Assembly: GCA_963816365.1 (NCBI GenBank)
Contig: CAWFKG010000017.1
Span: 28,415 to 92,414, forward strand
Direction of reading: 5' to 3'
DNA: 64,000 nt
DNA from: an uncultured Bacteroidales bacterium
Lineage (GTDB): Bacteria > Bacteroidota > Bacteroidia > Bacteroidales > VadinHA17
The notes under the pieces were generated by a model. That model did not search any database. It was not told the origin of the DNA and saw only the letters and a program-made list of their open reading frames with translations. Position numbers and translations under genes: made by a program. Position 1 is the first letter of the stretch. Every line of letters begins with the position of its first letter. This document shows, piece after piece, positions 3,896 through 57,506 of the stretch.

Positions 3896-4232
3896 CTCAC
3901 CGCCGTCCCATAGACGTCAACTTAAGGAGTTGAATATAGTAGAATGTAAAATATTGGATATAAGCCTGATACATTTCCCCTCCTTTTGAAGGAGGGGTGG
4001 CCGGACCACTTTATAATTATGTTACAAATACTGATACCGGCCGGGGTGGTTGATTGTTTATTCAATTTCCTGATCTTTTCTTTTGAAGGTTTTTCTTATC
4101 TCATTTTTTACAAATTCAGGTTCCTGGAATACTAACGCTCAGCCCCCTTCAAAAGGGAGGGGAAACTTTTTTATGCAGTATCTCATTCATCCCCCAAAGC
4201 TTAAGTTGACGACTATGGGGATGGGGGTGAGT
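3896..4232. mobile_element. gene-less deletion derivative of the DUF559 hairpin cassette found at 56730-57506
   Basis: 3942-4131 is nearly identical to 56828-57018. The outer inverted repeat is CCATAGACGTCAACTTAAG / CTTAAGTTGACGACTATGG and the inner one is TTTCCCCTCCTTTTGAAGG / CCTTCAAAAGGGAGGGGAAA. Only about the last 25 codons of the DUF559 gene remain. Confidence 0.7.
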
Positions 4233-7925: not shown

Positions 7926-8045
7926 GACTTAGAGACTTAGAGACTCAGGGACTTAGAGATCGAAGTACTGAGCAATGTCCCTTTGTCCCTTAGTCTCTTA
8001 GTCTCTCAGTCTCTTAGTCTCTCAGTCTTCAGTCACTTAGTCTCC
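7926..8045. repeat. empty imperfect hairpin of the GACTTAG / CTTAGTCT 8-mer family
   Basis: The left arm at 7926-7959 and the right arm at 7986-8045 are complementary at about 29 of 34 aligned positions by eye. The loop is about 25 nt. The right arm ends on the stop codon of the 8045..9447 gene. Confidence 0.8.
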
Positions 8046-25765: not shown

Positions 25766-25768
25766 GTT

Positions 25769-25844
25769 TGAGGTTGAGGTTGAGGCTAATGAGGCTAAGG
25801 TTGAGGCTAGTTCTTTTAATCTTAACCTTAACCTTAACCTTAAA
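25769..25844. repeat. empty hairpin, (GAGGTT)n arm against (AACCTT)n arm
   Basis: Left arm 25769-25809, ~9-nt loop, right arm 25819-25844. There is one G-T wobble per 6-mer on the plus strand. The wzm stop codon (25840-25842) lies in the right arm. Confidence 0.8.
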
Positions 25845-30156: not shown

Positions 30157-30328
30157 GAAAGATAAAAGGAAAAAGGGTAAAGTATGGTTAAAGATAAAAG
30201 ATAAAAGTCACAAGACAAAAGTAAGAGAGGTTGCTAATTAAGGTCTTCCTCATTTTACTTGTTTTTAACCAGATATTTTGTTAGTTCTTCAAACTTTTAT
30301 CTTTTTACTTTTGTCTTTTGTCTTGTTG
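30157..30328. repeat. purine-rich tract followed by a complementary pyrimidine-rich tract (AAAGATA / TTTTGTC repeats), forming a loose hairpin
   Basis: 30157-30230 (GAAAGATAAAAGG..AAGATAAAAGATAAAAGTCACAAGACAAAAGTAAGAGAGG) against 30247-30328 (CCTCATTTTACTTG..CTTTTATCTTTTTACTTTTGTCTTTTGTCTTG). The motif order is partly permuted. Confidence 0.55.
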
Positions 30329-31023: not shown

Positions 31024-31123
31024 CAGGTTAAGGTCAGGTTATTGAGTAGCAAATTTACTCGATTTCTTTAATAATGCAATACCCTACTTGTTTTTATTAT
31101 CAAAATCTGCAATTTCTGAAAAC

Positions 31124-31670
31124 GGGCGCGAGGTATGCGGTTTGCGGTGTGCGGCAGAAGGTACGCAGAAGATTATTTGCTGTATGAGGTTTAATATAAA
31201 ATCATTATCTTTAGGCTCAGTGCTAATTTAAATTATTAATCTAAAACGCTGCATCATGGGAAATTTTCAAAAACTTCGTGTTTGGCAAATTGCCAAAGAA
31301 CTTGCCGTTCAAATTTACAAAATGACTCAAAATCTTCAGTTTAGAAAAGATCTGGGATTCAAAGATCAGATTCAAAGATCTGCAGTCAGTATTCCTTCTA
31401 ATATAGCTGAAGGAGATGAATCAGGTACTGATAAATTATCAGTCAGATATTTTTATATAGCTAAAGGATCTATAGCGGAACTTATGACACAATTAATAAT
31501 TGCCAACGAGATTGGTTATATTGATTCTGAAATTAAAAGTCAATTAGTTGATACCTGTGATAAATTATCTTCAATGTTGACTAGACTTATAAATGTAAGG
31601 CGTCAGATGAAATAAAATCGTCTATCCGAAAAACAAATACCGCATACCGCACGCCGCGTACCGCAAGCCC
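31124..31670. mobile_element. hairpin-bounded cassette a (four-helix-bundle cargo), arms (TGCGGTN)n / (ACCGCAN)n
   Basis: Left arm 31124-31169 and right arm 31637-31670 match at about 25 of 34 Watson-Crick positions by eye. Most of the remainder are G-T pairs. Confidence 0.65.
31256..31615 (+). CDS. four-helix-bundle protein (23S rRNA intervening-sequence protein family, PF05635/TIGR02436-like)
   Basis: Intact 119-aa ORF. KDQIQRSAVSIPSNIAEG and YIAKGSIAEL are the family hallmarks. Confidence 0.85.
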   Translation: MGNFQKLRVWQIAKELAVQIYKMTQNLQFRKDLGFKDQIQRSAVSIPSNIAEGDESGTDKLSVRYFYIAKGSIAELMTQLIIANEIGYIDSEIKSQLVDTCDKLSSMLTRLINVRRQMK

Positions 31671-36140: not shown

Positions 36141-36657
36141 GTGTTGCTGGTTGCTGGTTGCTGGTTACTTCTTACGATAATTAGCAATTAGCAACTAGCA
36201 ACTCGTAACTAGCAACTGGCTAAGTTTTCCAATCAGATTCTACATATTTGATGAAATTGTTAATCATTTTTCCTAAAGTGTCAAGATCCTTAAGAATTTC
36301 TACAAATTCTGAAATCTTTGGGTACAGTTCAATAACAGTAACTGCCTGATTAGTTGCTTCATCGCAGGAAGCTTGAGAATAAACTAAATAACGAATAAAC
36401 TCGGCTTTATACCTTCTTCTGCCGTATCCTTCGACAATATTATCCTTTACGCTTTTTGTCGATCTTCGGATTTGACTTCCTTGTTCATATAGTTCAAACT
36501 GAGGTAACTTAAGTGATGCCTTGTGTACCCTTATAGCTATAACATACGCCAGCTTATAAATTTCCAAATCTTTATAACTCTTCATAATTATTCCTTTCTA
36601 CTTTAGCACGAGCAACAAGCAACAAGCAACAAGCAACTAGAAACTAGAAACCAGAAC
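36141..36657. mobile_element. hairpin-bounded cassette b, arms (TTGCTGG)n / (AGCAACN)n with two alternative right-hand partners
   Basis: 36141-36167 can pair with 36178-36218 (local) or with 36605-36657 (across the gene). Confidence 0.65.
36220..36585 (-). CDS. four-helix-bundle protein (PF05635-like, second subfamily)
   Basis: Intact 121-aa ORF with GSQIRRSTKSVKDNIVEGYGRRRYKAEFIRYL. Confidence 0.8.
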   Translation of the reverse strand: MKSYKDLEIYKLAYVIAIRVHKASLKLPQFELYEQGSQIRRSTKSVKDNIVEGYGRRRYKAEFIRYLVYSQASCDEATNQAVTVIELYPKISEFVEILKDLDTLGKMINNFIKYVESDWKT

Positions 36658-39158: not shown

Positions 39159-39210
39159 CCCCGAAGCCTGATACCTGATGCCTGATGCCTGATGCCTGAT
39201 GCCTGATACC
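39159..39210. repeat. tandem heptamer array (CCTGATG/CCTGATA) x7, a single arm without an adjacent partner
   Basis: CCCCGAAGCCTGATACCTGATGCCTGATGCCTGATGCCTGATGCCTGATACC fills the whole gap between the convergent stops at 39158 and 39215. Confidence 0.85.
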
Positions 39211-39214
39211 TTTA

Positions 39215-39766
39215 TTAAACCTTCTTCAGAAAGCTCATCGGTATCTTCAGTATAAGATTCTGATCAAGCTTGTCAATCCTGACCACAACACGGTTTTTGC
39301 TGCCAATTTTAATTAGTTCGCCTGTCAGGCCGATGAGAGAGCCATTTATTACCTCAACATTATCACCCTGCTCGAATTTTTCGGACGAGACTTCTATTTC
39401 AGCATCACTGTTTATAAGAAGACGAAGGTTATCGATTTGGTTCTGCGGAATTGAGACAGGTTGCCCCTCGAAGGAGACAAATTTTACCACACCGATGATC
39501 TTATAGACCCGGGGAAAATGCTTCTTTTTGGTTTTTACAAATATGTATGACGAGAGCAGTGGTTTTTCAACAAGCTTCTTACGGTCGCTCCACATCCTGT
39601 AGGTCTTCTGAAGCGGGAGAAAGGTTTCAATACCTTCCTCAACGAGTCGTTGAAATACCTGCTTCTCAGCTCTTGGACGTGTATATAGGGCATACCATTT
39701 TTCTTCAGAGATACCGGGAGTAATAATTATTTCTTCCTCCGAGAATATGTTGTTGTGGCCGTTCAT
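39215..39766 (-). CDS. UpxY-family (NusG-like, KOW) transcription antiterminator
   Basis: Intact 183-aa ORF with WYALYTRPRAEKQVFQRLVEEGIETFLPL..SSYIFVK and a C-terminal KOW-like GDNVEVINGSLIGLTGELI. Confidence 0.8.
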   Translation of the reverse strand: MNGHNNIFSEEEIIITPGISEEKWYALYTRPRAEKQVFQRLVEEGIETFLPLQKTYRMWSDRKKLVEKPLLSSYIFVKTKKKHFPRVYKIIGVVKFVSFEGQPVSIPQNQIDNLRLLINSDAEIEVSSEKFEQGDNVEVINGSLIGLTGELIKIGSKNRVVVRIDKLDQNLILKIPMSFLKKV

Positions 39767-42190: not shown

Positions 42191-42890
42191 TCTTTTCTTT
42201 GCCCCCCTGCCCGAGAAGTTAAATCTCTGTTTATCCTTTTGCCCCCCTGCCCCCCTAAAGGGGGGTTCGTACTCGTTATTTAAGTGAGTTTTGTATATTT
42301 GAAATATTGCTGCATTATTAATGAAAACAGTAATATCTAAAATTACTATGTATTATGGAGCGGATTCCGCGACATTAAGACACCCATATACTTAGAAGGA
42401 GTATGACTAAAGATGAAGGGGTACTATGGAAAAAGTTAAAGGACAGAAATGTATTTAGCAGTAAAATTTAGAAGACAACATCCTGTTTATAATTTCATTG
42501 TTGATTTTTATTGTCATGAATATAAGCTTGTCATAGAAGTTGATGGAGATATTCATAATGATGAAATTGCATACCAGTATGATTTGGGCAGAACTAAAGT
42601 GCTTAACAATTTTGGATTGAAAGTAATCCGATTTACAAATGATCAGATACTTTATAGTTTAGATTCTGTAATAGAGGAAATCCAAAGAGAAGTTGCGAAT
42701 CGAACTCCCCTTAGGGGGGCAGGGGGGCAAAAAAGAGATGAGCATAATAAAATTGGGCAGGGGGGCAAAAAAGAGATGAGTATAATAGAGTTGGGCAGGG
42801 GCAGAGATGAGCATAATAAAATTGGGCAGGAGGGCAAAAAGAGATGGCATTAGGATAATAATGCTGGGCAGGGACAAAAATAACAGAATG
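42191..42890. mobile_element. hairpin-bounded cassette with DUF559 cargo; arms are inverted arrays of a ~38-bp unit
   Basis: The left side has 2 units ending TTTTGCCCCCCTGCCCCCCTAAAGGGGGG (42191-42266). The right side has 5 units, GGGCAGGGGGGCAAAAAAGAGATGAGCATAATAAAATT and variants, starting at 42717, 42755, 42793, 42824 and 42866. Confidence 0.7.
42348..42853 (+). CDS. DUF559 (Vsr-like endonuclease fold) protein, 2 N-terminal frameshifts, C-terminus reads into the repeat arm
   Basis: ORF 42449..42853 (FRRQHPVYNFIVDFYCHEYKLVIEVDGDIH..LKVIRFTNDQI) parallels the intact copy at 56944..57327. Upstream frames give MYYGADSATLR.. and ..MTKDEGVLWKKLKDR. Confidence 0.65.
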
Positions 42891-43057: not shown

Positions 43058-44605
43058 ATGGAAAAGCGTAAATTCAGGACAATAACACTCCTTGCAGATA
43101 TTGTCATTCTTACAGTATCCTTTCTTGCTATGGTATGGACCAAGCCTGCAAGCCTCAGGTTTTACCTGCCATCGCATACACCATTCTTCCTTGGTCTGGC
43201 AGTAATGTGGATCATAGTTTCCTTAATTAACGGGAAAATGCACCGTGGCAGGATCATCAACTTTTCATCACTCTTTACCAGGGTTCTTACAAGTAATATT
43301 ATTGCGGTTTCTATTACTGCCCTTGCAATGTACGCTATCAGAGAGATCCAATATTCAAGAACCATTGTCCTGGGAACAGCTTTGCTCGCCACATTTCTTG
43401 AACTGGTATTCGGCTCTGTCTATATGGCTTACAAAAAGGCAGTTGTACAGGATTTTGATGCTTATGATAAATTCAAGCCGGAAAGGAGGCCAAGTGAATA
43501 TGAGCTTGTAAAGAAAACAAACGGGAATGGACATCAAAAGATAGAACATACTGAGGTAAATCCCCGAATTGCCCTGGCGATCGAAAATGAGTGCGGATCG
43601 GAAATGGCTCTGGCAATCCTGAATATGACTTGTAGCAATTTTACCGATCACACTGCAGTGTTATCGACCACCACTATTTTTAATATTACTAGTCTGGTGA
43701 AAGAAAAGTATGATTATATAATCAATCTTCATAAGATCAATGACATAAAAAAACTCGACAGCTTTCTCGATGCCGTAAACACTAAGCTTGCAGAGAAAGG
43801 TTTTTTCTTCTGCTGTGTCGAGACCAAGGACCAGAGGAAACGCAGACTATTAAATAAGTATCCGTTCCTATTGAATTATATTTATTATTTTTTTGATTTT
43901 ATAATAAAACGGATCCTTCCGAAACTCAGTTTCACAAGGGGATTCTACCTCTTCCTTACACATGGCGATAATGCGGTCATCTCTCGTGCCGAAGCGCTGG
44001 GCCGACTCTCAAGGGCAGGATTCAGGATCAAGCAGGAGTCATTCATAGGAAACCTGTTGTGCATTGAAGCAAGAAAGATCAAAGATCCTTTTCCGATTAA
44101 TGGTAATGTTTATGGCCCATTGATTGCTTTATCAAGAGTGGGCAAGGACGGTAAGATGATTAAAGTATATAAGCTCAGGACCATGCATCCTTATTCTGAG
44201 TATATCCAGAAATATGTCTATGAGATACACAATCTTAAGAATGGTGGAAAGTTTAAAAATGATTTCCGTATAACCTCCTGGGGTGCCATCTGCAGAAGAA
44301 CCTTTTTAGATGAGCTGCCAATGCTCATGAACTTCTTTCGTGGAGATATGAAGATTGTTGGAGTGCGGCCTTTAAGCAAACATTATTTTGAATTATACAG
44401 TAAAGAGCTTCAGGAGCGGAGAATTAAATATAAACCCGGACTTATTCCGCCATTCTATGCAGATATGCCCTGCGATCTGGAGTCGATACAGGCTTCCGAA
44501 CTCAAATACCTTGATGCCTTCGACAAACACCCTGTCTATACTGATTTCCGTTATTTCTGGAAATCGAGCTGGAATATACTGTTCAGGAAGGCAAGAAGCA
44601 ACTAA
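43058..44605 (+). CDS. polyprenyl-phosphate glycosylphosphotransferase (WbaP-like bacterial sugar transferase)
   Basis: Intact 515-aa ORF. The N-terminus has TM helices. The C-terminal domain reads VGKDGKMIKVYKLRTM..DELPMLMNFFRGDMKIVGVRP. Confidence 0.8.
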   Translation: MEKRKFRTITLLADIVILTVSFLAMVWTKPASLRFYLPSHTPFFLGLAVMWIIVSLINGKMHRGRIINFSSLFTRVLTSNIIAVSITALAMYAIREIQYSRTIVLGTALLATFLELVFGSVYMAYKKAVVQDFDAYDKFKPERRPSEYELVKKTNGNGHQKIEHTEVNPRIALAIENECGSEMALAILNMTCSNFTDHTAVLSTTTIFNITSLVKEKYDYIINLHKINDIKKLDSFLDAVNTKLAEKGFFFCCVETKDQRKRRLLNKYPFLLNYIYYFFDFIIKRILPKLSFTRGFYLFLTHGDNAVISRAEALGRLSRAGFRIKQESFIGNLLCIEARKIKDPFPINGNVYGPLIALSRVGKDGKMIKVYKLRTMHPYSEYIQKYVYEIHNLKNGGKFKNDFRITSWGAICRRTFLDELPMLMNFFRGDMKIVGVRPLSKHYFELYSKELQERRIKYKPGLIPPFYADMPCDLESIQASELKYLDAFDKHPVYTDFRYFWKSSWNILFRKARSN

Positions 44606-44608
44606 CGC

Positions 44609-44920
44609 TTACAGACTTAACGGCGCAAAGGCGCAACGGCGCAAAGGCGTGAAGAAATATCCAATTTCCTCCGCAATGATAAGTTGTGTTAACAACTCTG
44701 CACTTGAACCTTTTGCAATATAAAAATGACGGATAGATTGTTTATCTGTTTCAAGTTCATCACCTTCAGCAATATTTGAAGGTACGCTAACGGCAGATCT
44801 CTGAATCTGATCTTTCAATCCAAAGTCTTTTGAAAATGACAGCGTTTGAGTTAGTTTATAAATTCTCACAGCTAATTCCTTAGCCAGTTGCCACACACGA
44901 AGCTCTTGAAAATTTCCCAT
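44609..44920 (-). pseudogene. 3'-truncated four-helix-bundle gene; the last 16 codons are read from the repeat arm
   Basis: The first 88 aa are about 80% identical (70 of 88 by hand count) to the protein of 31256..31615. Helix 4 is missing and is replaced by FFTPLRRCAFAPLSL, encoded by the (GGCGCAAA)n arm. Confidence 0.75.
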
Positions 44921-45098
44921 AATACAGCGATATTAGATTTATAAATAAAAGTTAGCACGTAGGATAAAGATATAACTTTTCTCTGAGATTAACTGGATGT
45001 TAGTTGTTTCCTAAAATTGCATATCGTAATCCCAATAATTATTAATAAACTTTCTCAGCAAGGCCGTTGCGCCGTTGTGCCGTTGTGCCGTTGTGCCA
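44617..45098. mobile_element. hairpin-bounded cassette c, arms (GGCGCAAN)n / (GCCGTTGN)n 8-mers
   Basis: 44617-44650 TTAACGGCGCAAAGGCGCAACGGCGCAAAGGCGT against 45062-45098 GGCCGTTGCGCCGTTGTGCCGTTGTGCCGTTGTGCCA. Confidence 0.7.
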
Positions 45099-45186
45099 TT
45101 TCTTTATAAAAAGTGATTAGTTAATTCCCTTGATTTTTAATTTAATAAAAATTAAATACCTTTGCGGCATAATTAAAATTTTAGCC

Positions 45187-46127: not shown

Positions 46128-46730
46128 CTATCTCCCCAGCTGCTGTTTAACTATCTTTGCGATATACTTCCCCAGAATATCGAACTCGAGATTAACAACT
46201 GTTCCTTTCCTGATCTGATGAAAATTAGTGACTTCATGGGTAAAAGGAATAATTGCAACTTCAAATGATGCAGCTTTTGAGTTTACTACTGTAAGACTTA
46301 CTCCATTGACCGATATTGATCCTTTTTCGACAGTTATATAATCGTCCTGAGCAGGCTCATATTCGAAAGTGTAATACCAGCTGCCTCCTGCTTCCTTAAC
46401 CAAAGAGCAGACTGCGGTCTGATCAACATGTCCCTGAACCATATGTCCGTCAAGGCGTCCATCCAATCGGGTACTGCGCTCCAGATTTACCTTATCTCCT
46501 GGCTTTAAGGAGATCCCAGATTAGTTTTTTCAAGCGTCTCTTTTATGGCAGTCACAGTATATGTATCCTCCGTCTTTTCTGACGACTGTCAGACAGACCC
46601 CGTTATGCGAAATGCTCTGATCGATCTTAAGTTCATTGACAAATGAACATTTCATGGTTATGTGAAGGTTGTCCTTTTCTTTTTCAAGTTTTACAACCTG
46701 AGCAGCTTCTTCAATAATTCCGGAAAACAT
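46128..46730 (-). CDS. ribE: riboflavin synthase, frameshifted at ~46470-46560
   Basis: ORF 46530..46730 (MFSGIIEEAAQV..SISHNGVCLTV) and ORF 46128..46466 (RLDGHMVQGHVD..SISVNGVSLTV..NLEFDILGKY). Confidence 0.85.
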
Positions 46731-46855
46731 TTTATTATCAGAATTAAATTAATGGGTGTAAAGTTAGAGAAAATTAGTAAAAGGACACACGACACACGAC
46801 TCACGACACACGACTCAAATACGAAGAATTGTTTTGACTTTTTAAAAATGATCTT

Positions 46856-46863
46856 TAAATTTG
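46856..46863 (+). promoter_or_regulatory. candidate -7 box TAAATTTG inside cassette d
   Basis: It matches TAnnTTTG and lies 38 nt upstream of the ATG at 46902, internal to the left arm. Confidence 0.4.
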
Positions 46864-46901
46864 ATTTGGAATAAAAAGTAATCACTTAATCTCGCTGTGC
46901 T

Positions 46902-47261
46902 ATGAGCAATTATGAAAATTTGAAGGTTTGGCATAGAGCCGTTGAACTTGCAGTTTCAATCTATAAGTTAACAGGAACGAACAAATCATTTGTTAAAGAT
47001 TTTGGATTAAAAGATCAAATACAGAGATCATCTGTGAGTATTTCCAGTAATATTTCCGAAGGTGATGAACTCGGAACTGATAAGCAAGCTATCAGGCAAT
47101 TCTTTATCGCAAAAGGATCGGCAGCAGAACTTTATACTCAGCTTACTATTTCCTCTAAAATAGGATACCTGAATGAGGAAGAAGCCAAGTATTATTTGAA
47201 TGAATGCAAAGGCATTTCATCCATGCTGACTAATCTCATTAAATCGAGATCATCAGAATAA
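46902..47261 (+). CDS. four-helix-bundle protein (PF05635-like)
   Basis: Intact 119-aa ORF with KDQIQRSSVSISSNISEG and FIAKGSAAEL. Confidence 0.85.
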   Translation: MSNYENLKVWHRAVELAVSIYKLTGTNKSFVKDFGLKDQIQRSSVSISSNISEGDELGTDKQAIRQFFIAKGSAAELYTQLTISSKIGYLNEEEAKYYLNECKGISSMLTNLIKSRSSE

Positions 47262-47312
47262 ATTATAATAGATTCTATTTAGTTCTTTAAATTCTCTATT
47301 CTGCACGGTGAT

Positions 47313-47760
47313 TTATTCACCGTGTGTCGTGAGCCGTGCGTCGTGTGTCCAAATCATCTTCTTCCCAAACCCCAATCTGTTATCCGTCATCTTAATATGA
47401 GTAAGTTTTACGACCCAGAGATGAGTATCCATGAGCGCTGCCGGAGGAAATTTTTTGAGATACGCCCATTTTGCTTTTGATAACAATTCTGCCTTCAGGT
47501 TCTGAGATTATTCCCTGAAATTGTATTCCGCGGATCTTTCCTATTACCATAGTCTCAAGAACAACCGATCCTGCAACCAACGGATTTTTGACGAATTCTT
47601 TCCCGTGACGGGTATCAGCATCAGTAGTGAAGACCAGCATATTTTCTTCTTCAAGATAAACATAAAAACAATTAGCACACCAGGGTTCATTTTCAACTGT
47701 CGTGGCAATTGTAAGAACATGATGCTTCCTGAAGAACTTTATGATCGTGATGTCAACCAT
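47313..47760 (-). CDS. YhbP-like (UPF0306, pyridoxamine 5'-phosphate oxidase fold) protein, one frameshift; the last 13 codons come from the cassette arm
   Basis: ORF 47392..47760 (HHVLTIATTVENEPWCANCFYVY..IRGIQFQG) plus a second frame reading KAKWAYLKKFPPAALMDTHLWVVKLTHIKMTDNRLGFGKKMIW, then THDARLTTHGE*. Confidence 0.7.
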
Positions 47761-49315: not shown

Positions 49316-49571
49316 GACTCAGAGACTCTAGGGACTAAGGGACTGAGGGACTGCACACCTAAATAGTCTAGGATTGAGTGACATATCGACAGTCTTCCAT
49401 TATTTTCTCATACAGATCCATCAGGGAAAGCTCTTCGTCATTATTGCAACTTAAGAGAATCAGAGGTTTTGTAGGGAAGATATACTAAAGAGTAGTCTAA
49501 CCAGTATGCTTCATTACAGACTCTTCGTCTCTAGTCCCTATAGTCCCTAAGTCTCTTAGTCTCTTAGTCTG
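49316..49571. mobile_element. decayed cassette: arms of the GACTAAG / CTTAGTCT family around a ~40-codon remnant of a four-helix-bundle gene
   Basis: Arms at 49316-49352 and 49518-49571. The minus-strand remnant 49368-49457 reads ..LLSCNNDEELSLMDLYEKIMEDCRYVTQS*, which resembles the C-terminus LSCDYMTEQEHFDLNETYDKILGKL of 54156..54527. Confidence 0.6.
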
Positions 49572-53158: not shown

Positions 53159-54098
<940 letters not shown>

Positions 54099-54101
<3 letters not shown>

Positions 54102-54710
54102 CTGACGGACTTAGTGACTAAGGGACTTAGTGACTAAGGGACTCAGAGACGAGGGTTACCAACTCCAATTCTCTGGATGGAGGGACATGTTGACAAGCTT
54201 TCCTAATATTTTGTCATAGGTTTCATTAAGGTCAAAATGTTCTTGTTCGGTCATATAGTCACAACTTAACGAGAAATCCAACCAGGTTTGAGTTTCTGCT
54301 GCTTCGCCCTCCGAATCCGTGAGTTTTGCAATAAATGATTTTGGATATCTTCTTTTTCTGAAGGCTTCTGCTAGATTTGAGCATACTGACCTGGAAGATC
54401 TTCTTATTTGATCTGTTAAAGAATAAATCTCTTCTTTGGGAAATCTCTTGGTTAGTTCAAAAATCTTCATTGCTACATCGAACAAAAGACAATACACGTC
54501 TAATTCCTTGTGAGATCTGATTTTCATTTTTCAGCGATTTAAGTAAGACAATTATTATTCCAATCTAAAATTAGAACAAATACTTGAATCCTATTCATAA
54601 TTTGTTTTATATTCTCATCATCCCTATAGTCTCTTAGTCTCTTAGTCTCTTAGTCTCTTAGTCTCCTTAGTCTCTTAGTCTCTTAGTCTCTTAGTCTCTT
54701 AGTCTCTCTT
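54099..54710. mobile_element. hairpin-bounded cassette e, arms GACTTAGTGACTAAGG.. / (CTTAGTCT)n
   Basis: The left arm 54099-54155 begins with the uxs TGA. The right arm 54621-54710 is about 10-11 tandem 8-mers. Confidence 0.7.
54156..54527 (-). CDS. four-helix-bundle protein (PF05635-like, second subfamily)
   Basis: Intact 123-aa ORF with TDQIRRSSRSVCSNLAEAFRKRRYPKSFIAKL. Confidence 0.8.
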   Translation of the reverse strand: MKIRSHKELDVYCLLFDVAMKIFELTKRFPKEEIYSLTDQIRRSSRSVCSNLAEAFRKRRYPKSFIAKLTDSEGEAAETQTWLDFSLSCDYMTEQEHFDLNETYDKILGKLVNMSLHPENWSW

Positions 54711-56729: not shown

Positions 56730-57506
56730 TCACCCCCTTCATCCTCCATAGAGAGTGGCGGGGAGGCAAAACCGTCAACTTAAGAAGTTGAATATAGTAA
56801 AATATGGAGAGAGTTTAGTACAAAACAGAATGTAAAATATTGGATATAAGCCTGATACATTTCCCCTCCTTTTGAAGGAGGGGTGGCCGGACCACTTTAT
56901 AATTATGATACAAATACTGATACCGGCCGGGGTGGTTGATTGTTTATTCAAATTCCGGATCTTTCATTTTGAAGATTTTTCTTATCTCATTTTTTACGAA
57001 TTCAGGTTCCTGGAATACCAGCCTGTTTTCAAACCTTAGTACTGAGAATCCAAGGCCTTCAAGATATTGATCTCTTTTTTTATCTTTTTCTATTTTATGA
57101 TATTCACCATGCGGATTTCCATCAAGCTCAATTACCAGTTTTTCTGAAGTACAACAAAAGTCAACTATGTAATTACCTATACTATGTTGTCTTCTGAATT
57201 TTCTTTCATTAAGCTTTTTTGATTTTAAAATGTTCCATAACTCAGCCTCAGCAGAAGTGGACTTGTTCCTAAGAGATGATCTAAAAAACTTAAGGCTTTT
57301 TTTGTTAAAGAGGATTTTGTTTTTCATGCCAATAAAGGTAAGAAAGAAATCAATGAATCAACCACCCCGATCGGGAAATAAAACACTGTATATATCAGAT
57401 AATCAATCGTCCCGACCACCCCTCCTTCAAAAGGAGGGGAAACTTTTTTATGCAATATCTCGTTCATCAATAGAGATTAAGTAGACGGCATGGGGTGGGG
57501 AGGTGA
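56730..57506. mobile_element. hairpin-bounded cassette with intact DUF559 cargo and three nested inverted repeats
   Basis: The outer pair is 56730-56786 / 57467-57506. The middle pair is 56858-56896 / 57409-57444, and each member contains its own CCCCTCC..GGAGGGG hairpin. The inner pair is 56919-56941 / 57354-57376. Confidence 0.75.
56944..57327 (-). CDS. DUF559 (Vsr-like endonuclease fold) protein
   Basis: Intact 127-aa ORF with AEAELWNILKSKKLNERKFRRQHSIGNYIVDFCCTSEKLVIELDGNPH..LRFEN. Confidence 0.8.
   Translation of the reverse strand: MKNKILFNKKSLKFFRSSLRNKSTSAEAELWNILKSKKLNERKFRRQHSIGNYIVDFCCTSEKLVIELDGNPHGEYHKIEKDKKRDQYLEGLGFSVLRFENRLVFQEPEFVKNEIRKIFKMKDPEFE

Follow-up and report, generated by a model that had tools for sequence, protein, structure and literature searches.

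The DNA studied here is a 64,000-nt stretch from an uncultured Bacteroidales bacterium (contig CAWFKG010000017.1 of assembly GCA_963816365.1, positions 28,415 to 92,414; the whole stretch is referred to as the window, and coordinates count from its first letter). Between a yhbP-like gene and the riboflavin synthase gene ribE it carries a compact unit, which we refer to as cassette d, where two inverted arms of tandem heptamers enclose a single gene of the PF05635 family. Cassette d is one copy of a small one-gene element, probably mobile, and is part of a dense family that extends over the genome and had not been described before. The features at the locus are:

46128 to 46730, minus strand: ribE, riboflavin synthase with two lumazine-binding domains, split here by 1-nt insertions
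46783 to 46816, no strand: left (cargo-upstream) arm, tandem 7-mers GACACAC/GACTCAC, 4.4 copies
46833 to 46863, plus strand: Bacteroidetes-type promoter, -33 element TTTG at 46833-46836, 19-nt spacer, -7 box TAAATTTG at 46856-46863
46902 to 47261, plus strand: cargo gene, 119 aa, PF05635 23S_rRNA_IVP / TIGR02436 four-helix bundle, Avd-like, by Pfam, NCBIfam and PDB matches
47304 to 47324, plus strand: small 7-bp hairpin CACGGTG-ATTTATT-CACCGTG with a 7-nt loop, at the inner end of the right arm
47313 to 47348, minus strand: C-terminal extension that the arm encodes for the yhbP-like protein, THDARLTTHGE and a stop codon, the frame reading ...GFGKKMIW-THDARLTTHGE-stop
47313 to 47760, minus strand: yhbP-like gene (UPF0306 / PNPOx-like), split here by a 1-nt insertion at 47489
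47321 to 47350, no strand: right (cargo-downstream) arm, tandem 7-mers CGTGTGT, 4.1 copies

Stem, host genes and cargo of cassette d

An earlier, sequence-only reading had placed a near-perfect stem of about 29 of 32 positions at this site. The cassette is real, its arms lie where they had been placed and the stem stands far above shuffled sequence; the count is corrected to 28 of 30, with a repeat search pairing 46783-46812, the part of the left arm that pairs with the right, with 47321-47350 (30 nt, 93% complementary, 508 nt enclosed). Scored as an ungapped inverted repeat (+1/-2), cassette d reaches 24, against 7.65±1.06 and a maximum of 12 in 1000 dinucleotide-preserving shuffles of 46720-47420, and amongst 1500 random 700-nt windows of the same sequence scores above 15 occurred only in those holding cassette d or another cassette. 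When 46770-47365 is folded, the long stem is present in the minimum-energy structure of both strands, with z-scores of -7.2 (plus) and -8.2 (minus) against shuffles. At the two mismatched positions the plus strand has A·C and the minus strand consequently G·U, which leaves the stem without a break in host-sense read-through RNA. That only such read-through RNA, or single-stranded DNA, could form the long stem had been proposed earlier and follows from the anatomy. The small 7-bp hairpin is also present, although the coordinates first given for it (47303-47326) were only approximate, its halves being CACGGTG at 47304-47310 and CACCGTG at 47318-47324, and its loop contains the yhbP-like stop codon (47313-47315) on the opposite strand. 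It lacks a T-tract and did not score as an intrinsic terminator, nor did anything else at cassette d. The hairpin sequence is not conserved in relatives, where other small hairpins are present at that position; it may serve as the 3' end or as a stabiliser of the cargo mRNA.

Both neighbours lie on the minus strand and the cargo on the plus strand, as had been described, and the yhbP-like gene has lost its native 3' end to the arm; the 13 codons formerly ascribed to the arm are 11 arm-encoded codons plus a stop. The two outermost base pairs of the stem come from the conserved Trp codon at 47349-47351. Among YhbP homologues lacking a tail, the six of highest similarity (P numbers designate these homologues) are 138 aa long and stop one codon after the conserved Trp, ending ...GFGKKLIWP-stop; P0001, P0002, P0003 and P0005 are at 96-97% identity and P0013 and P0015 at 92-93%. 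Other homologues end IWTE, IWSK or IWTK. The closest cassette-free relatives end IWP-stop and do not share the tail, so the replacement reading stands. The remaining YhbP alleles exhibit variable-length tails which are the translated heptamer arm, for example THDARLTTHGE or THDTRHTTQGEL, the longest of these proteins reaching up to 169 aa with NQDARLRTHDSGRTTHGEEHGTHDARHTTQRE. Annotators should be warned that C-terminal tails of this kind on host proteins are translated repeat arms.

A cargo protein identical to that of cassette d is encoded on the 99.6-kb contig CAWBQN010000002.1 of an uncultured Bacteroidales metagenome-assembled genome, MFD01872.bin.1.230 (hereafter the sister genome), whose contig shares ~93-96% identity with the window in the 12 kb surrounding cassette d, and 87-93% in a further two regions. 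In the sister genome ribE (199 aa), yhbP (148 aa) and ubiX are all intact, and relative to it the ribE, yhbP-like and ubiX frames of the window are broken by single-base insertions at 46501, 46514, 46566, 47489, 47792, 48120 and other positions. These breaks are probably long-read (homopolymer) assembly errors, not pseudogenes, and unrelated to the cassette.

The 119-aa gene inside the loop is intact, as first read, and open throughout 46902-47261 on the plus strand. Its product matches PF05635 over the full length (E 3.4e-31) and the NCBIfam model TIGR02436, "four helix bundle protein" (E 7e-31), and amongst its relatives, structures have been solved for the pentameric Xcc0516 (2GSC, E 4.7e-12) and 2RLD. 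To our knowledge, PF05635 has no demonstrated function and no known catalytic function. The family is homologous to Avd of diversity-generating retroelements (DGRs; PMC10053308). A single-sequence search with the d cargo against 1.84 billion representatives matched 9,914 clusters (50% identity) at E ≤ 1e-3, and a scan of metagenomes with the d protein recovered 80 loci at 68-93% identity. The open-reading frames (ORFs) of this d family are full or near-full length (117-124 codons) in 75 of 79 loci, and 39 unique full-length genes exhibit a dN/dS of 0.08 at a median dS of ~1.1; the d-family protein is under strong purifying selection, with synonymous sites free to change.

The promoter box had been read at 46856-46863, inside the loop. 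It is there, 38 nt upstream of the cargo ATG with a conserved leader between, and a TTTG exactly 19 nt upstream adds a -33 element. Its placement within the loop holds across the d family: of 57 unique upstream regions, 43 contain TAnnTTTG at a constant spacing, and the distance to the ATG is 38-40 nt for 42 of the motif's 45 occurrences. A leader with ≥80% conservation comes after it, whilst what lies between the arm and the -33 region varies. L086 (L numbers designate loci from other genomes) has this promoter too, as TTTG-N19-TAACTTTG. The fixed position and the conserved leader support an internal promoter, which we infer drives the cargo. As a general feature of such cassettes the internal promoter was rejected: the exact TAnnTTTG was found in the loop upstream of the gene in only 7 of 50 arm-bearing loci (3 expected), and the full -33/-7 pattern occurs four times in the window against 1.75 expected. 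The promoter is convincing only within the d family.

Related cassettes and their probable movement

Scans by tblastn, Pfam and repeat searches found five PF05635 cassettes in the window, d included. Their proteins are 29-69% identical and the repeat unit is different in each; the other four are:

31125 to 31669, plus strand: cassette a, gene 31256-31615, arms 31125-66 and 31626-69, unit GGTATGC
36143 to 36656, minus strand: cassette e, gene 36220-36585, arrays 36143-66, 36179-217 and 36611-37, unit GTTGCTG
44619 to 45100, minus strand: cassette b, gene 44920-44609, 3'-truncated, arms 44619-49 and 45063-100, unit GGCGCAAC
54095 to 54707, minus strand: cassette c, gene 54527-54156, arms 54095-162 and 54627-707, unit TAGTCTCT

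The gene of cassette b is without its last ~30 codons, and the extra array of cassette e leaves its left arm able to pair locally or across the gene. The cassette c protein also matches bAvd, and was alone amongst the PF05635 proteins of the window in matching PHROGs, as 'Avd protein of DGR'; PADLOC returned no match for any of them. The window further contains at least five gene-less foldback hairpins with related arms (3974-4165, 7926-8028, 25768-25843, 30158-30324 and 49316-49569), the last four of which consist of tandem 6-8-mers with z-scores of -3.9 to -5.1 where folded. The unit family of cassette c is found at three loci in the window (7926-8028, 49316-49569 and 54095-54707).

Beyond the window, a scan of one genome per species yielded the 80 nearest loci encoding relatives, mostly in Bacteroidota with some in Desulfobacterota, Nitrospirota, Vibrionaceae and Clostridia, and 78 of these had enough flanking sequence for a test of the arms. 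Inverted arms flank the gene in 50 of the 78, with scores of 14-55 against shuffle maxima of 9-13 (for example 55 vs 13, 43 vs 9 and 42 vs 13), and the arm unit has a period of 7 in 30 loci, 8 in 16 and 9 in three. Nearest-neighbour proteins tend to have a unit in common: AACGGCGC in Wb/L002/L011/L012 and ATGCGGY in Wa/L003/L005 (Wa and Wb being cassettes a and b of the window), AGGCGTC in L014/15/17, AGAGGGT in L029/33 and AAAGTTGT in Polaribacter. The unit follows the protein clade at non-orthologous sites, Wa lying between two divergent genes and L005/L003 beside a Bac_transf gene. No rRNA gene lies near any of the 80 loci. Among 2.9 million viral contigs there was a single weak match, a near-absence which indicates that the element is not phage-borne. 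Antisense orientation is found for b, c, d and e in the window and in most close Bacteroidales loci; as a rule it was rejected, with 19 sense, 10 antisense and 10 convergent cases counted amongst the 80 genome loci from crude ORF calls. In the open-access literature searched, PF05635 genes outside rRNA were mentioned only as uncharacterised ORFs, such as the one within cas operons (PMC3936711), and no description was found of non-rRNA S23p cassettes with repeat arms.

Close relatives hold other elements at the same yhbP-ribE junction, which bears out the earlier view of cassette d as an inserted unit. Four states were found there: the cassette in antisense, the cassette in sense, unrelated gene-less foldbacks or remnants of DUF559-type cassettes (L082-L085), and an 81-nt scar (L087-L089). 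About 32 d-family loci lie at this junction. In 20 that have both flanks the cargo runs antisense to the two host genes, and in four (L091, L104, L151 and L152) it runs sense; the partial locus L120, and possibly L099, may also be sense. In L086, where the arms are of GACACAC type and the cargo lies in the opposite orientation to yhbP, the gene has a premature stop (a pseudogene) and the ribE-side arm is expanded to ~80 nt. L082 and L083, from the same metagenome as the sister genome, hold a gene-less hairpin of (CTCTGTG)-type units (z -5.3), and L084 and L085 a spacer of 276 nt containing a DUF559-type cassette's 5' end, in a pattern identical to window 42233-42300. In contigs of the sister genome's metagenome, such a gene-less hairpin, of another repeat family than the d arms, or DUF559-type remnant comes after a 138-aa YhbP that ends IWP-stop. 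The 81-nt spacer of L087-L089 retains arm ends only (TGG, then ACGCACGAC...GAGTCTTGTTTCC), and YhbP there ends THDI-stop. As these alleles show, the site has been filled, flipped, eroded and refilled. As a separate observation on this neighbourhood, a small GIY-YIG gene (91-111 aa) is present between SIR2 and ubiX in some relatives (L086 at 1104-1379, and the JGI contig of P0047), and not in the window; it is a further small insert of nuclease type.

The site of cassette b, between the Bac_transf gene and dksA, is similarly changeable. In the window it holds b-type arms with a truncated gene, in L084 a-type arms around a gene-less loop that keeps the promoter/leader block TATCTTTAT..ACGTGCTAA (leader TATCTTTATGCAACGTGCTAAGT, comparable to TATCTTTATCCTACGTGCTAACT in Wb), in L083 and L086 G6/C6 remnants together with the 5' end of the first DUF559 cassette type, and in L087-89 a short scar. 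The d family itself occurs with CACGACN-type arms elsewhere, at dksA|ribE, nusG-like|dksA, Bac_transf|253-aa gene and dksA|gene at 52 kb junctions, and further d-family flank clusters have no similarity to the window; the same arms at several junctions imply that the arms travel with the gene. Some d-family loci lie at junctions with altered gene order (L109/L121/L124/L125/L127, L103/L105/L108/L118 and L119/L128/L156/L158), for example with Bac_transf beside the 253-aa gene, which in the window sits at 53.3-54.1 kb. These cassettes mark synteny breakpoints in the surroundings of a region resembling a polysaccharide locus.

For cassettes a, b, d and e, we compared the window's interior sequences with those of the sister genome; cassette c was left out, as its exact protein has no entry on record. 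The interiors exhibited four substitutions in ~2030 nt (0.2%), and the adjoining genes differ by 4-6%. The near-identical tracts, measured against L001/L020/L170, span 44582-45140, 46702-47354, 36150-36600 and 31250-31620 at 99.2-100% identity, and the tracts with zero substitutions stop within 4-80 nt of the arms, that of cassette d (46702-47354) ending 4 nt past the right arm. As dS in the family is normal, this identity reflects recent common ancestry of the alleles and not constraint. It suggests either recent lateral exchange with breakpoints near the arms, or young insertion alleles sheltered from flank-diversifying recombination. In cassette a, compared with L020, the upstream arm and spacer (31065-31250) are unalignable and replaced outright, yet there is 99% identity in the gene and full identity in the outer flanks, and the right arm differs by one repeat block.

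Proposed mechanism, rival explanations and known systems

We hold with moderate confidence that cassette d is a foldback element of the type seen in the intervening sequences (IVSs) of 23S rRNA, in which host read-through would be insulated by RNase III and the mobile unit includes the arms. The unit of ~570 bp consists of a 7-nt-unit arm, its own promoter, the PF05635 gene with the small hairpin, and an inverted copy of the arm, the whole being the heritable and evidently mobile entity. It inserted one codon before the yhbP-like stop, so that the arm encodes the YhbP tail. The cargo would be transcribed from the internal promoter into an mRNA carrying the 3' arm only, which, having no 5' arm, would be unable to form the long stem, whereas in read-through RNA from ubiX-yhbP both arms would be present and pair as a duplex of 30 bp, two G·U pairs included. 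Judged from 23S rRNA, where this architecture recurs, the duplex would be an RNase III substrate, and cleavage would excise the insert and uncouple the yhbP and ribE messages. As DNA, the inverted arms recombine and slip, giving loop inversion, changes in arm length, internal deletions after which hairpins without a gene are left, and probably exchange of alleles between strains. What the sequences show is the anatomy, the family to which the cargo belongs, arms specific to each family, presence at many sites, polymorphism of the site, both orientations, products of decay, a protein under purifying selection and a conserved promoter; what we infer is that RNase III cuts, that the promoter is used and how the unit transposes.

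Several results weigh against this reading. Within the unit there is no transposase, integrase or reverse transcriptase, and at the ends of the five window cassettes, whose arm boundaries are fuzzy, no direct repeat was evident that would mark a target-site duplication. About one third of the homologues (in Vibrio, Clostridia and some Bacteroidota) are without detectable arms, including L037, L043, L044, L046 and L048 (Vibrionaceae) and L030, L035 and L036 (Clostridia), none of which shows arms beyond chance level; not all of PF05635, therefore, comes with the repeat-arm package. Over long distances, the identity of the cargo at yhbP-ribE falls off roughly as that of the host genes does, so much of the history of d at this site is vertical, in long runs broken by loss, inversion and replacement. 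No sign of selection on an RNA stem was detected. All six transition mismatches in window cassettes b, c and d are G·U on the host-sense strand, and wobble pairs were considered as a guide to the strand of action; this was rejected, with 56 sense and 46 antisense G·U pairs over 50 loci and no strand bias, and at antisense-oriented d-site loci the score gained from G·U was 314 vs 322 by strand, no signal. In fixed windows, the arms of d-family elements pair no better with their own partners than with borrowed ones (15.57 vs 15.57, p = 0.06), and an apparent excess taken as compensatory co-evolution of the arms (18.1 vs 13.4) came from arms defined by their own best pairing. The d family conserves the unit on both sides without element-specific compensatory change. 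Inversion of the loop with the yhbP-side arm in place shows that the arms recombine as DNA, which alone could keep them alike.

These last results are what would be expected if the arms acted purely at the DNA level, as terminal inverted repeats or recombination handles for insertion, inversion and exchange, with the RNA stem incidental and the tandem units serving as register-tolerant homology through which ordinary recombination swaps cassettes into same-family foldbacks. We regard this as a serious possibility, albeit one we rate below an RNA role. It gains from arms that are family-specific in the manner of transposon ends and travel with the gene, from both orientations at one site with the yhbP-side arm still orthologous, from zero-substitution tracts that end so close to the arms, from the missing strand bias and covariation and from gene-less foldbacks of the cassette c unit family at several loci. 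It is weakened by the identical architecture in 23S rRNA, which is demonstrably processed as RNA (PMC4990558), and for which no recombinase is known, and by arms of 30 nt being marginal for RecA; it is in any case compatible with the foldback-and-RNase III reading and not exclusive of it. That the cassette is instead a domesticated host module, its protein having a cellular role such as nucleic-acid binding or regulation of the neighbours, its stem insulating or terminating yhbP/ribE and its inheritance vertical, we consider improbable. Purifying selection at a dN/dS of 0.08, persistence at yhbP-ribE with cargo identity tracking that of the host, and a conserved promoter of its own would all fit such a module, but near-identical hosts are polymorphic for presence, absence and replacement, with scars, the same family lies at several unrelated junctions, the window holds five diverged paralogues within its 64 kb, truncated genes and pseudogenes occur (Wb, L086), and the 500-nt loop is no intrinsic terminator, nor was one scored.

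Both loop orientations do occur at the same site with the arms in place, in different metagenomic contigs, as a phase-variable segment would show if a site-specific invertase flipped promoter and gene at the arms. This is very improbable here, as promoter and gene flip together and the cargo would not be switched, the two orientations were found in different strains (88% vs 92% cargo identity) and not within one population, arm sequences differ between cassettes such that no single invertase would recognise all of them, and no recombinase gene is adjacent. Least credible of all is an integron-type gene cassette: a single small gene with imperfect inverted repeats able to fold in single-stranded DNA recalls one, yet the element has two symmetric tandem-repeat arms and not one attC with R''/L''-L'/R' cores, it has its own conserved internal promoter, and each cassette stands alone amid housekeeping genes, 2-10 kb from the next, and not in an array beside intI/attI (no genome-wide search for intI was made). 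A further conjecture, which we think rather unlikely, concerns the protein: the PF05635 pentamer itself might be the mobility or maintenance factor of a transposase-less foldback class, recognising, on RNA or single-stranded DNA, the family-specific units of 7-9 nt that make up its own arms, one unit per subunit with typically 3-5 units per arm, and its binding might promote copying or exchange of cassettes into hairpin-forming sites near gene 3' ends. Were this true, the 23S rRNA IVSs would be an rRNA-inserted minority, and the 30-year-old question of IVS origin and of the role of S23p would be answered.

The closest known counterparts of cassette d are the S23p-bearing IVSs of 23S rRNA in Leptospira, Coxiella burnetii and Brucella, which like d have a PF05635 cargo, a similar size (428-760 nt vs 568 nt) and a stem of ~28-30 bp around the ORF. 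In Coxiella the IVS measures 428-444 nt, its terminal stem is 28 bp long and its loop contains an S23p ORF (PMC4990558); like d it has an arm of tandem heptamers, two to three copies of GACAGAT at the 5' end, whose number varies among strains, and it is cut in the stem in vitro by the RNase III of both Coxiella and E. coli (PMC4990558). Unlike these IVSs, which lie in helix 9, 25 or 45 of 23S rRNA, cassette d is flanked by ribE and yhbP, in its clade it is usually antisense to the host genes, and many diverged families coexist per genome; it has its own promoter and leader, whereas the Coxiella ORF is without a usable ribosome-binding site and decaying. Three features that define an IVS are thus present in d and the defining location is not, and by analogy d would work like an IVS but is not one.

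Eukaryotic foldback transposons (Drosophila FB, Galileo and Tetris) resemble d in their length-variable terminal inverted repeats of short tandem subrepeats, and resemble the cassette family in having many copies without coding capacity and an association with inversions. They are eukaryotic, of kilobase scale and with identifiable transposases, unlike d, which is bacterial, of a ~0.1-0.6 kb class and with no known transposase gene, and the likeness is architectural, not homologous. Terminal inverted repeats common to copies at different loci, by which foldbacks and miniature transposable elements with inverted repeats (MITEs) are recognised, were found in the d family and for the c-type units. 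MITEs of the Correia/NEMIS and ERIC type are, like d, small inverted-repeat elements in intergenic or 3' regions that are co-transcribed with host genes, and Correia/NEMIS stems are cut by RNase III in Neisseria, affecting the stability of the flanking mRNA. They are however non-coding, have one conserved terminal inverted repeat per species and generate target duplications, whereas d has a selected gene and family-specific tandem-repeat arms, with no recognisable target duplication. Avd is homologous to the d cargo in fold and superfamily and is a pentameric four-helix bundle; unlike a DGR, the loop of d holds one 119-aa gene between ribE and yhbP, with no reverse transcriptase and no pair of template and variable repeats. 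In cyanobacteria, short tandemly repeated repetitive (STRR) sequences form heptanucleotide arrays in intergenic DNA, and those genomes hold many 'four helix bundle protein' genes. The S23p-bearing rRNA IVSs have reportedly been called possible mobile elements since 1993, without evidence. Cassette d and its relatives supply evidence of mobility, in family-specific arms, different sites, both orientations, gain, loss and erosion to gene-less hairpins, and alleles shared by genomes with ~5% core-gene difference, together with a strongly conserved protein. PF05635 "four helix bundle proteins" are scattered through bacterial annotations in thousands of clusters without an assigned function, and an annotation curiosity here becomes a testable system.

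DUF559 cassettes and other repeats in the window

Two further one-gene units with inverted arms carry a Vsr/restriction-endonuclease-like gene of the DUF559 type:

42449 to 42853, plus strand: gene of DUF559 cassette 1, arms 42237-62 and 42707-32, 26 nt, 96% complementary
56944 to 57327, minus strand: gene of DUF559 cassette 2, arms 56860-903 and 57399-442, 44 nt, 84% complementary

Their arms are rich in G6/C6 or internally palindromic, and the foldback at 3974-4165 is a gene-less relative. No Rfam family matched anywhere in the window at gathering thresholds. Directly downstream of a NusG/UpxY-like gene (39215-39766, minus strand) lies an array of 6.6 copies of (GCCTGAT) at 39166-39211, with no inverted partner found within 140 nt, which may be a solo arm. 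The first DUF559 ORF is overlapped at its 3' end by a 38-nt tandem repeat of 3.8 copies (42717-42850), in which GGGCAGGGGGGCAAAAAGAGATGAGCATAATAAAATT occurs.

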